A DNA stretch of 58,689 nt from an uncultured Candidatus Saccharibacteria bacterium (lineage in GTDB: Bacteria; Patescibacteriota; Minisyncoccia; UBA6257; 1-14-0-10-44-23), in contig CAYMXN010000001.1 of NCBI GenBank assembly GCA_964394435.1, forward strand, positions 109,739 to 168,427, written 5' to 3'. Shown piece after piece: positions 16,472-20,213 of this stretch (position 1 is its first letter; each line of letters opens with the position of its first letter). The position numbers were made by a program, and so were the translations under genes. Under the pieces are notes generated by a model, which saw only the letters and a program-made list of their open reading frames with translations, searched no databases and was not told the DNA's origin.

Positions 16472-17167
16472 CTATTTTAAGACATCATACTGCAAATGCA
16501 GATATGAATTTTTAAGCTTCTCTACACTCTTTAATTTCAAGGCTTTGAGCTTAGATAGCTCTTTTAGAGATTTTAATGACTTTCCCCCAATTATTGATTG
16601 CGTTTCTGTACCCCCAACGAGGACCGGGGCAATGACGAGCGAGATACGGTCAATGAGTCCCTGTCGCAAAAATTCAGCATTCAGGGTTCCTCCTGTCTGA
16701 ACAGTAACTCTCGCAGCGCCAAATTCTCTACGAAGCCGATACATCATATGTATCCAATTAATTGTCTTGGGGTAGGAAATAGTATGAACATTTTTTCGCT
16801 TACTCTTAAATGATGGATGTTTCTTATTGGTGGTTACAACAATAAGCGCCTTCGCTTTGTCTGACAGATAATTTAATCCGCTGCGCGAAAGGTGTGGCTT
16901 ATTATCAATAACAACAAAAGTAACGGGGAGCGCCGGACCCTTCCATTTTTTTGTATTTGCACCAACCTTCGCGAGTACTCGACCAGAATTTAGTGAAAAA
17001 AGGTCAGTCCATTTTTCTAATTCATAATATTGATAGAGACCCTCTCGTACGCCTTTGATCTTTGGAAAATCCTGATCAATATCAAGTACATTGGTTGATC
17101 CGGTTGAAATTTTCCCATCGACAGAAGCCAATAGAAAAAGGGTTGTGATTGGTCGCAAGCTTTTCAT
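16472..17167 (-). CDS. RibD C-terminal domain / dihydrofolate-reductase-like reductase
   Basis: N-terminus MKSLRPITTLFLLASVDGKISTG, typical of this family. The longer track ORF (to 17248) runs through tRNA-Tyr, so ATG 17167 is used. Confidence 0.65.
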   Translation of the reverse strand: MKSLRPITTLFLLASVDGKISTGSTNVLDIDQDFPKIKGVREGLYQYYELEKWTDLFSLNSGRVLAKVGANTKKWKGPALPVTFVVIDNKPHLSRSGLNYLSDKAKALIVVTTNKKHPSFKSKRKNVHTISYPKTINWIHMMYRLRREFGAARVTVQTGGTLNAEFLRQGLIDRISLVIAPVLVGGTETQSIIGGKSLKSLKELSKLKALKLKSVEKLKNSYLHLQYDVLK

Positions 17168-17170
17168 GTG

Positions 17171-17254
17171 TGGGCAGAGAGGGATTCGAACCCCCGTAGG
17201 CCAAAGGCCGTCACGTCTACAGCGTGATGTAATTGACCGCTCTACCATCTGCCC
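17171..17254 (-). tRNA. tRNA-Tyr(GTA)
   Basis: Hand fold: acceptor GGGCAGA/TCTGCCC, anticodon arm TCACG-CTGTAGA-CGTGA, a long variable arm, and T-loop TTCGAAT. No encoded CCA. Confidence 0.85.
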
Positions 17255-17309
17255 GCTGTTGATACTTGCTGATTTTACTTCAGAGTTGGATTTTCTTCAA
17301 GTAAAGAAA

Positions 17310-17337
17310 GCCCCGAACCTTTTTTGGGTTCGGGGGC
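17310..17337 (-). terminator. Hairpin terminator (bidirectional shape)
   Basis: gccccgaacc-tttttt-gggttcgggggc. Confidence 0.6.
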
Positions 17338-17669
17338 TAGGGCTGACAGGGCTTGTCGATGCCCATCGCGCTTTCAAAGTGGCGTTCCACTACCATGATC
17401 GCGTGGTTGGCGCTTTCGATGTCGATTACGCCATACGGCTCGAGCTCGGGAGGCACTTCGATCGCCACCACTTCTTCTTTTTCGGCCGAGCGCGGCTTTC
17501 TGATTTCCTCGACGCCGATCGTGATTTGTTTGCCCTTGGCAAACATCAGATAGTAGGCTCGGCCCTCTTTTTGTGGCTCTTGATGCGACTGGAGTCGGCC
17601 TTGAAGCCAGGGGAGGACGCGTGCGGGATCGATCTTTGTGATCACCCGCGGGAGTTCTTGCTTGCTCAT
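17337..17669 (-). CDS. Hypothetical protein (GC-rich cassette between two tRNA genes)
   Basis: AGGAG SD 7 nt upstream of the ATG, GC-rich composition, and no recognisable family. Confidence 0.5.
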   Translation of the reverse strand: MSKQELPRVITKIDPARVLPWLQGRLQSHQEPQKEGRAYYLMFAKGKQITIGVEEIRKPRSAEKEEVVAIEVPPELEPYGVIDIESANHAIMVVERHFESAMGIDKPCQP

Positions 17670-17720
17670 CGCGGGTACTCCTATTGAGGATGCTGCCAGG
17701 GTTTGGCTTGTTCTGCCTCC

Positions 17721-17748
17721 AGTATCGCAAAGTTTTATTGGTTGTCAA
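17721..17748 (-). promoter_or_regulatory. Putative promoter TTGACA-16-GATACT (minus strand)
   Basis: The reverse complement of tgtcaa at 17743-17748. Confidence 0.45.
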
Positions 17749-17781
17749 TCAGGACAAAATATATTACATTTGGGGGACATC

Positions 17782-17854
17782 GCCACCTTAGCTCAGTTGG
17801 TAGAGCAACACTTTTGTAAAGTGAAGGTCCCCGGTTCAAGTCCGGGAGGTGGCT
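17782..17854 (+). tRNA. tRNA-Thr(TGT)
   Basis: Hand fold: acceptor GCCACCT/AGGTGGC, anticodon loop TTTGTAA, and T-arm CCCGG-TTCAAGT-CCGGG. Confidence 0.85.
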
Positions 17855-17855
17855 C

Positions 17856-18455
17856 ATGATCGAAGTTGAACGAAAGTATGTACTTGATGATGCGCATCGT
17901 AAGCTCCTCCTTGAAGGGGCGGTATTTGATACGAAGAAGGTGATGCGTGACGTATATTATGATACGAAAGAGTATCGACTAACTACAAAAGATATTTGGT
18001 TGAGAAAGAGGGGTTCTCGATGGGAGCTCAAGGTTTCTTTGAATAATAGTAGTGCGCAGCGAACAGATTTTTATAACGAGATTGAGGTTGAGTCAGAGAT
18101 TTTAAAAGAGTTGGGATTGTCGGGCGATGGAAATATTGAAGAGGTTCTTGCGCAAGCTGGTTATACTCCATTTATTGATCTCGAGACTACTCGTGAAACG
18201 TATAAACGAGGTCAGTTTAGTATCGATCTTGATACGGTACGATACCAAGACGGCAGCGTGTATCTTATCGCTGAAATAGAGATTGTGGTTGCGAGCATGA
18301 GCGAGGTACCACAAGCAGAGAAGCTTATTGATACCTTTGTTGCAGAAATTGGTCTTTCGCCCGAGCGACCAAAGGGTAAGGTTATTGAGTATTTGTATAA
18401 GTCAGCACCAGAGCATTATAACGCCTTGCTCAAGGCTAATGCGATTCGCACCTAG
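17856..18455 (+). CDS. CYTH domain protein (triphosphate tunnel metalloenzyme / class IV adenylate cyclase-like)
   Basis: N-terminal MIEVERKYVL (ExExK motif). The ATG begins 1 nt after the tRNA-Thr discriminator. Confidence 0.8.
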   Translation: MIEVERKYVLDDAHRKLLLEGAVFDTKKVMRDVYYDTKEYRLTTKDIWLRKRGSRWELKVSLNNSSAQRTDFYNEIEVESEILKELGLSGDGNIEEVLAQAGYTPFIDLETTRETYKRGQFSIDLDTVRYQDGSVYLIAEIEIVVASMSEVPQAEKLIDTFVAEIGLSPERPKGKVIEYLYKSAPEHYNALLKANAIRT

Positions 18456-18490
18456 ACTTTTATTGGAAAATCGATAGAATAAGACGTATC

Positions 18491-18562
18491 GCCAATGTAG
18501 CTCAGAGGTAGAGCAACTCCATGGTAAGGAGTAGGTCGCGAGTTCAATTCTCGCCATTGGCT
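18491..18562 (+). tRNA. tRNA-Thr(GGT)
   Basis: Hand fold: acceptor GCCAATG/CATTGGC, anticodon arm ACTCC-ATGGTAA-GGAGT, and T-loop TTCAATT. Confidence 0.85.
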
Positions 18563-18613
18563 CAAGTGCTCTTGCCTTTTCGGAGGGTTTGCGCTACTAT
18601 ATACACCATTGTT

Positions 18614-18784
18614 ATGCCAGAATCTAAACGAACGAAAAACTTAATCAGGTTGCGCTGCGCCACTTGTAAGGCGACCAACTATTACACGCGTAAGAATAAA
18701 AAGCTTGTTGAGCGTAAATTAGAGTACTCAAAGTTCTGCCCGAAGTGTCTCAAGCACACGACTCACAAAGAAGCGAAAAAATAA
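18614..18784 (+). CDS. rpmG: 50S ribosomal protein L33
   Basis: 56 aa: [30 protein letters not shown]...[14 protein letters not shown] (CxxC...CxxC). Confidence 0.9.
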
Positions 18785-18791
18785 TCAATTA

Positions 18792-18818
18792 CCGCCCGTT
18801 GGGCGGTTTTGATTTTTT
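18792..18818 (+). terminator. Intrinsic terminator after rpmG
   Basis: ccgccc-gtt-gggcgg followed by a T-run. Confidence 0.7.
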
Positions 18819-18847
18819 GGGATAAGTCCGCTAGTATTCTTTCGTAC

Positions 18848-18919
18848 GGGCGCGTCGTCCAACGGCTAGGACTTCGGTCTCCAAAACCGACTATCAGGGT
18901 TCGAATCCTTGCGCGCCCG
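18848..18919 (+). tRNA. tRNA-Trp(CCA)
   Basis: Hand fold: acceptor GGGCGCG/CGCGCCC, anticodon arm TCGGT-CTCCAAA-ACCGA, and T-loop TTCGAAT. Confidence 0.85.
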
Positions 18920-18923
18920 CACT

Positions 18924-19319
18924 ATGAGTTTTGCTGAAGCGGTTGAAAAAATCTCGCAAGCAAGTACAAAGTCTGACGCTTTGCGTGTTGCGTACGATAT
19001 TTTAAGCACAAAGTATCATGGTGGGCGTGTAAAAACCTACGCGTTATTTTGGCGGTTGTTTGAAGATACGTTTGAAAAACTTTGGAGCCGAAGTGGCTTT
19101 TTGCACTGTACTAAGATTAACCGGGTGTTGCGTGAGCTTTTGTTGGCGAGTGGTAAGTTTGCTCCTAGCGATATTCGCACTCGTTGGACGTTGGTTTGGT
19201 ATGTTTCGCCTCATCAGTATATGCAGGTTCGTGTTGAAAATGAGCAGTGGGTGAGTGTTGATATTTGGGCAAAAGCGTACGGGATTCAATTTGGAGATTA
19301 CGCGCGCGGGTTTAAATAA
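18924..19319 (+). CDS. Hypothetical protein, possibly a transglutaminase-like Cys-His-Asp fold
   Basis: Ordered FLHC...SPHQY...VDIW residues resemble a transglutaminase-core triad, but this is a weak call. The ATG lies 4 nt after tRNA-Trp. Confidence 0.35.
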   Translation: MSFAEAVEKISQASTKSDALRVAYDILSTKYHGGRVKTYALFWRLFEDTFEKLWSRSGFLHCTKINRVLRELLLASGKFAPSDIRTRWTLVWYVSPHQYMQVRVENEQWVSVDIWAKAYGIQFGDYARGFK

Positions 19320-20115: not shown

Positions 20116-20190
20116 CCTTCGGGGGGGTACTCAGGGCGAGGGTGGCTTTGCTATGTTCGCTTAGCCCCGCTACGCTTGCAGTGAGCTTGC
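20116..20190. repeat. Repeat-family insert E2 between the duplicated tRNA-Arg ends
   Basis: It shares the ordered blocks ccttcgg / ctcagggcgag / tttgcta / gcagtgagc / gccgaact with 51938-52016. Confidence 0.7.
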
Positions 20191-20213
20191 CGAACTGTGC
20201 CCTCGAACTGAAT
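20191..20213. repeat. Proximal copy of the 23-nt direct repeat (overlaps the genuine tRNA-Arg 3' end)
   Basis: Identical to 20093-20115. Confidence 0.9.

Follow-up and report, generated by a model that had tools for sequence, protein, structure and literature searches.

Start codons set directly behind tRNA genes suggest leaderless, tRNA-punctuated messages in a patescibacterial family without an anti-Shine-Dalgarno sequence

How can a protein gene be expressed when its start codon lies only a few nucleotides behind the 3' end of a tRNA gene? The question is raised by a 58,689-nt stretch of DNA (the window) from the genome of a Candidate Phyla Radiation (CPR)/Patescibacteria bacterium with a tiny genome (745,619 bp in three contigs, 98.9% complete, 48 tRNAs; G000 below). 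Twelve tRNA genes were called in the window by ARAGORN, and those for Tyr(GTA), Thr(TGT) and Trp(CCA) are each followed on the same strand by an open reading frame (ORF), namely a RibD_C-like gene, a CYTH-domain gene and a conserved hypothetical gene (Table 1). An initial annotation made from the letters alone had placed these three ATG codons 1-4 nt past the tRNA 3' ends, with no room for a leader. Its coordinates are correct: the spacers measure 3 (Tyr), 1 (Thr) and 4 (Trp) nt, and they hold no leader, promoter or terminator signal. As judged from sequence, each locus of this kind is probably a small unit made of a promoter, a short 5' leader, the tRNA, 1-5 nt and an ORF beginning with ATG, in which excision of the tRNA would yield a leaderless mRNA.

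The 3' end of tRNA-Tyr(GTA) consists of the acceptor strand TCTGCCC and the discriminator A at 17171, and CCA is not encoded. tRNA-Thr(TGT) ends in AGGTGGC-T (17854), followed by a single C and ATG 17856, and tRNA-Trp ends in CGCGCCC-G (18919), followed by CACT and ATG 18924. For the RibD_C-like protein, aa 9 pairs with position 4 of the Pfam profile. Its N-terminus reads MKSLRPITTLF, and six homologues open with MNRPITTLF, MERTFNTLF, MKLRTFNTLF, MDRPYNTLF, MKKPITTLF or similar, so that their starts precede the RP/ITTLF motif by 2-3 residues. The public contigs carry this gene as a 258-aa call that is 27 codons longer and begins within tRNA-Tyr, which is implausible. For the CYTH protein, profile position 1 pairs with aa 1. 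The 131-aa ORF has four homologues of 131-145 aa (48-76% identity in a MAFFT alignment, 43 invariant columns), whose conserved block begins at about aa 4. The next in-frame start, 61 nt past the discriminator, would lose invariant residues, and ATG 18924 is the only start that retains the conserved N-terminal block of the family. The initial annotation's view that the CYTH and RibD_C-like starts were not mis-called is thus backed, and homologue N-termini or Pfam support all three starts.

Table 1 Coordinates of the features discussed (window positions unless a contig of G000 is named)
Feature	Position	Strand	Basis or remark
Terminator-like hairpin of the upstream 110-aa ORF	17311-17335		precedes the tRNA-Tyr promoter-like site
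Promoter-like site TTGAAG-17-TAAAAT	17272..17300	-	promoter scan and separate scan; ends 17 nt before the tRNA-Tyr 5' end
tRNA-Tyr(GTA)	17171..17254	-	ARAGORN; 7/7 acceptor pairs; cloverleaf acceptor helix in the fold
Spacer CAC, 3 nt, discriminator to ATG	17168..17170	-	sequence
RibD_C-like gene, 231 aa, ATG 17167-17165	16472..17167	-	Pfam RibD_C, E = 4.7e-20
Promoter-like site TTGTCA-17-TACATT	17742..17770	+	promoter scan and separate scan; ends 11 nt before tRNA-Thr(TGT)
tRNA-Thr(TGT), discriminator T at 17854	17782..17854	+	ARAGORN; 7/7 acceptor pairs; fold
Spacer C, 1 nt, equal to tRNA position 74	17855..17855	+	sequence
CYTH-domain gene, 199 aa, ATG 17856	17856..18455	+	Pfam CYTH, E = 1.9e-16
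rpmG terminator hairpin	18791-18807		directly before the tRNA-Trp promoter-like site
Promoter-like site TTGATT-17-TAGTAT	18809..18837	+	own scan; 8/12 consensus matches, under the promoter-scan threshold; ends 10 nt before tRNA-Trp
tRNA-Trp(CCA), discriminator G at 18919	18848..18919	+	ARAGORN; 7/7 acceptor pairs; fold
Spacer CACT, 4 nt	18920..18923	+	sequence
Conserved hypothetical gene, 131 aa, ATG 18924	18924..19319	+	four homologues; no Pfam match
Trailer motif CAGTTCGGCRRGCTCACTGCRAGC after tRNA-Arg(CCT)	20173-20196
Trailer motif CAGTTCGGCRRGCTCACTGCRAGC at tRNA-Val(GAC)	52017-side of the tRNA
Putative convergent ORF	G000 C2:177450-177773	-	2 nt after tRNA-Gly(TCC)
Putative convergent ORF	G000 C2:183511-184098	-	4 nt after tRNA-Val(TAC)
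16S rRNA 3' end	G000 C2:221949-222079	-	locus L104 200-330; relatives' 3' ends in loci L105-L134

Is the arrangement a peculiarity of the window? An ATG stands at +1 to +5 after 5 of the 48 tRNAs of G000, each time opening an ORF of 131-414 aa. The two further cases are tRNA-Ala(TGC), where CACCA and ATG open a 414-aa HI0933-like flavoprotein with a Rossmann domain from residue 8, and tRNA-Leu(TAA), where CCT and ATG open a 214-aa protein. The same-strand tRNA-to-ATG distances of the genome are 1, 3, 3, 4, 5, then 11, 15, 22, 28, 29 and upward. No tRNA 5' end in G000 is abutted by a divergent gene start; if a single dubious ORF 2 nt away is set aside, the nearest such start is at 54 nt.

For the relatives, tRNAs were located via Rfam RF00005, their flanks were retrieved and the same distance script was re-applied to an incomplete sample of 26-40 tRNAs per genome. 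In G001, which belongs to the same genus, 1 of 27 sampled tRNAs has an ATG within 5 nt; this is the same Leu(TAA) junction with an identical CCT-ATG, and the HI0933-like gene and recG follow their tRNAs at +11 and +15. G003 and G004 belong to the same family. The former has such junctions at 5 of 26 tRNAs (Val(GAC) +4, RluA-like; Thr(TGT) +2; Trp +2, C39-like peptidase; Arg(GCG) +2; Gln(TTG) +1) and the latter at 4 of 32 (Val(GAC) +1, RluA-like; Lys(CTT) +5, recG; Thr(TGT) +3; Gln(TTG) +5). The gene after tRNA-Thr(TGT) in these two genomes encodes a Cys-rich protein of 262-265 aa (265 aa in G003) with a weak NUMOD3 match below the Pfam cut-off. Another genome, G029, has tRNA-Trp followed by C and the ATG of murI. 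G034, from another family of the same order, has none among 40 sampled tRNAs, with a minimum tRNA-to-ATG distance of +12.

When the tRNA-to-ATG distances of up to 30 nt were pooled over the four genomes of the family, 15 of 30 fell into the 1-5-nt bin (binomial p = 2.6e-5), followed by 1 at 6-10 nt and 4 at 11-15 nt. With orthologous junctions counted once, the first 5-nt bin held 12 of 27 (p = 7e-4). The close spacing claimed for the three loci therefore extends to a genome-wide excess that recurs in relatives. Certain orthologous junctions also keep a spacer of at most 5 nt, such as the RluA-like gene after tRNA-Val(GAC) (+4 and +1) and the Cys-rich gene after tRNA-Thr(TGT) (+2 and +3). Three junctions of G003 read N73-CC-ATG, where the A of the encoded CCA is also the A of the start codon.

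These data bear on the possibility that the starts are mis-assigned, the true ones lying downstream, or that the ORFs are decaying accessory genes. The CYTH and RibD_C-like genes are indeed accessory or horizontally acquired: only 2 of 40 relatives carry a CYTH gene, and the nearest homologues of the RibD_C-like gene are found in distant CPR and DPANN genomes. Codon 4 of the RibD_C-like gene is also a TTG, a weak alternative start that would give MRPITTLF. On the other hand, alignments with Pfam profiles or homologues extend to aa 1-9 for four of the five proteins, all five ORFs are intact, the Leu(TAA)-linked gene has its identical junction in G001, and housekeeping genes (recG, RluA-like, murI, the HI0933-like flavoprotein) are likewise arranged in relatives. 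We regard mis-assignment or decay as very improbable.

None of the three window junctions was found in the relatives searched, and conservation is argued here from the other junctions for this reason. The CYTH gene does not stand beside tRNA-Thr in either of the two CYTH-bearing relatives among the 40 searched. The RibD_C homologues, all from distant genomes, have no tRNA directly upstream (in locus L099 a tRNA-Trp lies about 770 nt upstream), and one homologue of the 131-aa ORF is split off from its tRNA by a cassette. The latter case is found at positions 257-1074 of locus L138, where tRNA-Trp is separated from an ORF 76% identical to the 131-aa one by a hairpin and a gene for a 77-aa GIY-YIG nuclease, a selfish cassette inserted at the tRNA/start-codon junction. 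The places after tRNA-Thr(TGT) and after tRNA-Trp are single-gene slots whose contents vary between relatives (window 17782-18563; equivalents in loci L010-L038): CYTH, the Cys-rich protein with the weak NUMOD3 match, NUDIX, a membrane protein, a C39-like peptidase, murI or a flavodoxin-like protein.

How, then, do ribosomes of this organism recognize a start codon? The gene for 16S rRNA aligns with the Rfam bacterial small-subunit model over its full length, and its 3' tail reads GGATCAATTAAAC as against the usual bacterial GGAUCACCUCCUU. CCTCC is absent from this tail and from the 1.5 kb downstream in G000, and it is lacking in all 27 relatives of the order with an anchorable 16S 3' end, G034 included. 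By these tails, the anti-Shine-Dalgarno (anti-SD) sequence has been lost order-wide. Because it is lost, ribosomes must find starts without Shine-Dalgarno (SD) pairing, and the organism evidently initiates without that interaction. The initial annotation had also drawn attention to a GGAGG supplied by the T-stem/acceptor of tRNA-Thr(TGT) (17845-17849). Its position 6 nt before ATG 17856 is right, but a role as an SD sequence was ruled out, since a 16S rRNA without CCUCC makes the motif irrelevant for this purpose.

Genome-wide statistics, based on a set of 690 ORFs from a crude ORF caller, point in the same direction. No SD signal was seen upstream of the ATG codons of this set, where G is depleted and not enriched. 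Instead, -10-like hexamers concentrate 6-9 nt before ATG (TAYAMT in 68 genes vs about 8 expected), a pile-up that reads as the signature of leaderless transcription, and promoters of this type form the commonest start-codon context in G000. T occupies position -1 in 67% of genes vs 25% of all ATGs, and in 56-79% within every context class, perhaps because A37 of the initiator tRNA extends the pairing. Same-strand gaps between genes plateau at +1 to +5 nt (17, 16, 22, 20 and 26 pairs, 101 of 541), with about 6 pairs per nt from +6, and overlaps of -4 and -1 are rare (ATGA in 5 cases, TAATG in 3). The plateau and the scarcity of overlaps suggest a termination-reinitiation coupling that works downstream only. 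By these measures, a start codon of G000 is no more than about 5 nt away from a transcript 5' end or from a ribosome that is terminating, and the tRNA-abutted genes share this limit. In a Paceibacterota genome (locus L135, 1002-1914) just 1 nt separates a DHFR gene from the homologue of the 131-aa ORF behind it, and stop-to-start spacings of 1-5 nt may thus extend to other CPR lineages.

Each of the five focal tRNAs is preceded by a -10-like box, and in three of them (Tyr, Thr(TGT), Trp) a full promoter-like site ends 10-17 nt upstream. The box of tRNA-Ala(TGC), TATTTT, ends 16 nt upstream, and tRNA-Leu(TAA) lies 23 nt past tRNA-Cys, before which the box TAGATT ends at a distance of 9 nt. Terminator hairpins stand before the promoter-like sites of tRNA-Tyr and tRNA-Trp. 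Between tRNA and ATG, neither the promoter/terminator scan nor our own scan detected a promoter or terminator signal at the five G000 junctions, and the layout is consistent with co-transcription of tRNA and ORF under one promoter. The obvious alternative is that independent promoters lie within the tRNA genes, with a -10-like element in the T-arm or acceptor giving rise to primary leaderless transcripts; the commonest start context of the genome speaks for it. However, the ATG codons are preceded by GC-rich acceptor strands (CTCTGCCCACAC, GGAGGTGGCTC, GCGCGCCCGCACT, TAGGTCCACACCA and CCCCGAGCACCT), a TANNNT hexamer 5-10 nt before the ATG is absent at all five starts, and the sites of the promoter scan lay only upstream of the tRNAs, none inside. 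Internal promoters, named in the initial annotation as a competing source of transcripts, were thus looked for in the sequence and none was found at the five junctions, which makes this alternative quite improbable.

The predicted structure of a joint transcript would call for a cut. In the predicted RNA fold the acceptor helix is closed 1-4 nt before the AUG, with no pairing between tRNA and mRNA. Given the mRNA exit channel of the 30S subunit, such an AUG could not be seated by the ribosome while the tRNA is still attached. In the sequence of events that we infer, from co-transcription and the cut site to the nuclease and the translation of the processed RNA, transcription from the tRNA promoter would run on through the ORF, and RNase P would trim the tRNA 5' end. 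An endonuclease would then cut at or just after the discriminator or C74, releasing an mRNA with a 5'-monophosphate and a leader of 0-4 nt, and the CCA-adding enzyme would complete the tRNA. The freed mRNA would enter the 70S-type leaderless, SD-independent initiation used by the rest of the genome. Compaction of the genome would account for the short spacers, and processing for the expression of genes so placed.

Some of the required components could be identified in G000. The genome has an RNase P RNA (86 bits, E = 3.4e-27) and one gene of the CCA-adding-enzyme family; the latter fits because only 8 of the 48 tRNA genes encode CCA. Past the discriminator, 47 of the 48 tRNA genes continue with C, and 29 with CA. 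Of the five focal tRNAs, four (Tyr, Thr(TGT), Ala(TGC) and Leu(TAA)) have just one gene for their anticodon, and because these four genes are the sole source, the tRNAs must be matured from the junction transcripts. For the cut, two nucleases are present, RNase J (TIGR00649, 497 bits) and a beta-CASP RNase of 457 aa that is related to aCPSF1 and Cas14 and encoded on the minus strand at about 105.7-107.1 kb of contig C2; motif matches alone suggest a putative RNase III, an RNase Y-like protein, PNPase and YbeY. Candidates for the proposed endonuclease would be RNase J, the 457-aa beta-CASP RNase and the RNase Y-like protein, not RNase Z. As a separate observation on tRNA 3' flanks, about nine G000 tRNA genes run straight into a conserved trailer motif, CAGTTCGGCRRGCTCACTGCRAGC, some 24 nt in length. 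Besides the two sites in the window (Table 1), it stands after the genes for Phe, Glu(TTC), Arg(GCG), Arg(TCG), Ala(CGC), Pro(CGG) and Leu(CAG), and it is also found after tRNA-Ser(GGA) of G034.

Several observations weigh against the release of mRNAs by tRNA excision, and the first concerns the cutting enzyme. RNase Z makes the tRNA 3' cut in mitochondria and archaea, and also in most bacteria whose tRNA genes lack CCA, and it was the cutter implied by the initial annotation. This part of the claim was not supported: a canonical RNase Z is absent in G000 (best TIGR02651 score 24.7 bits vs a cut-off of 293) and in 41 of 41 genomes of the order searched. The PF12706 matches turned out to be RNase J, the beta-CASP RNase and a ComEC-like protein, and RNase Z was ruled out as the canonical enzyme. 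An RNB-domain exonuclease was not found in G000 either. Trimming by RNase R/II as in Mycoplasma (PMC4014445) was ruled out on this ground, and unlike in Mollicutes most tRNA genes here do not encode CCA. Should tRNA 3' maturation in this lineage, which has neither RNase Z nor RNase R/II, be exonucleolytic, for example by PNPase, it would consume the attached mRNA and not release it. The junctions themselves supply further points. Orthologous spacers drift between at most 5 nt and 11-23 nt (HI0933-like +5/+11, recG +5/+15, GNAT +11/+20), and by this drift a very short spacer is not strictly required. The genome-wide preference for U at -1 is not kept at the tRNA-abutted ATGs (about 4 of 16). 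A spacing of 1-5 nt is a general rule in G000 after any transcribed element and is not tRNA-specific. Finally, two convergent ORFs of the crude gene set end 2 and 4 nt past tRNA discriminators; because these putative ORFs also abut tRNA 3' ends, tight packing occurs at tRNA borders without any start-codon logic.

Could genome compaction alone explain the pattern? In that case a deletion bias would have squeezed all spacers and the tRNA junction would have no role; expression would be inefficient, depending on decay fragments made by RNase Y/RNase J or on SD-independent internal initiation on longer RNAs. The plateau shared by gene-gene gaps, the convergent gene ends, the stop codons found 4-13 nt from the 5' ends of four G000 tRNAs, the range of orthologous spacers (1-23 nt) and the absence of RNase Z all agree with it. 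But an AUG 1-5 nt from a closed acceptor helix needs some cut before a ribosome can load, and the distances are bimodal, where squeezing would pile them up smoothly. Furthermore, abutment is seen only for co-oriented, co-transcribable genes and is absent for divergent starts, and G034 is equally small (about 0.7 Mb) and also without an anti-SD, yet shows no such junction. For these reasons compaction alone is considered unlikely, and tRNA excision acting on compacted junctions is preferred as the more complete explanation.

The excision reading can be taken further. It is possible, though we put it forward only tentatively, that the real tRNA genes of this family double as modules that generate the 5' ends of leaderless mRNAs and are cut independently of RNase Z after position 73-75. 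Equally speculative is the extension of this double role to the CCATG junctions, where one nucleotide would be shared by A76 of the tRNA and the AUG, and to a co-evolution of the arrangement with the losses of the anti-SD and RNase Z. If the proposal holds, tRNA excision would supply translatable leaderless mRNAs in free-living or episymbiotic bacteria and not in organelles alone, and tRNA punctuation would be tied to two lineage-wide losses. It also poses an enzymological question, namely how CCA-less tRNAs are matured at the 3' end without RNase Z or RNase R, and makes start-codon finding by the ribosomes of ultra-small bacteria testable. On the practical side, public gene callers mis-call such genes, as seen for the RibD_C-like gene that was run 27 codons into tRNA-Tyr, and expression cassettes for genetically tractable Saccharibacteria (PMC10633639) should keep the leader at 5 nt or less.

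Which known systems come closest? Full-text literature searches returned no description of tRNA-abutted leaderless genes in bacteria, and some of the Parcubacteria are reported to have lost the anti-SD (PMC9297842). Bacteria rich in leaderless genes, such as Deinococcus deserti (PMC4007540), mycobacteria (PMC4633059) and the 'group C' genomes of GeneMarkS-2, resemble G000 in the -10 box about 7 nt before the start genome-wide and in SD-independent initiation. They differ in that their 5' ends are primary and the anti-SD is kept, whereas the five genes described here have no -10 box and would obtain their 5' ends by processing. The t-elements of Haloferax volcanii and plant mitochondria, which RNase P cuts together with tRNase Z (PMC4946936, with reference to Hoelzle et al. 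2012), share with our proposal a tRNA shape that serves as a cut signal and sets the end of the neighbouring RNA, in a host rich in leaderless mRNAs. The t-elements are non-decoding mimics, whereas the tRNAs here are canonical, with proper anticodons, 7/7 acceptor pairs and four of five single-copy; and Haloferax uses tRNase Z, while RNase Z was not found here.

The Thr/Tyr/Trp neighbourhood by rpmG is, as we take it, the homologous region of the thrU-tyrU-glyT-thrT-tufB operon of Escherichia coli. Both would place one or more tRNAs and then a protein gene under one promoter, which for G000 is predicted from sequence. In the E. coli operon the last tRNA is separated from the ORF by about 100 nt with a normal SD leader; G000 differs in its spacer of 1-5 nt and its missing anti-SD.

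The closest likeness is to tRNA punctuation in animal mitochondrial DNA (mtDNA), which was reportedly set out by Ojala, Montoya and Attardi in 1981. One-nucleotide overlaps in mtDNA are repaired after cleavage, and the CCATG junctions of G003, in which A76 is the A of the AUG, resemble them. A review of the mitochondrial system is available (PMC3790967). The comparison drawn in the initial annotation is reasonable as far as abutment, the lack of an anti-SD and leaderless geometry go: in both cases coding sequences abut tRNAs without an intervening promoter or terminator, ribosomes work without SD/anti-SD pairing and translate leaderless mRNAs (for G000 a prediction from sequence), and tRNA excision would set the mRNA 5' end. 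It is not supported where the cutter is concerned, since RNase Z/ELAC2 makes the cut in mitochondria and is absent here, and the spacing is not special to tRNAs, since 1-5 nt is also the norm between genes. The setting differs as well. Mitochondria process a long polycistron within an organelle, whereas in this free bacterial chromosome every tRNA would have its own promoter, only the 3' side is abutted and about 10% of the tRNAs are involved. If tRNA excision does operate at these junctions, they would represent a bacterial, chromosome-wide counterpart of mitochondrial tRNA punctuation.

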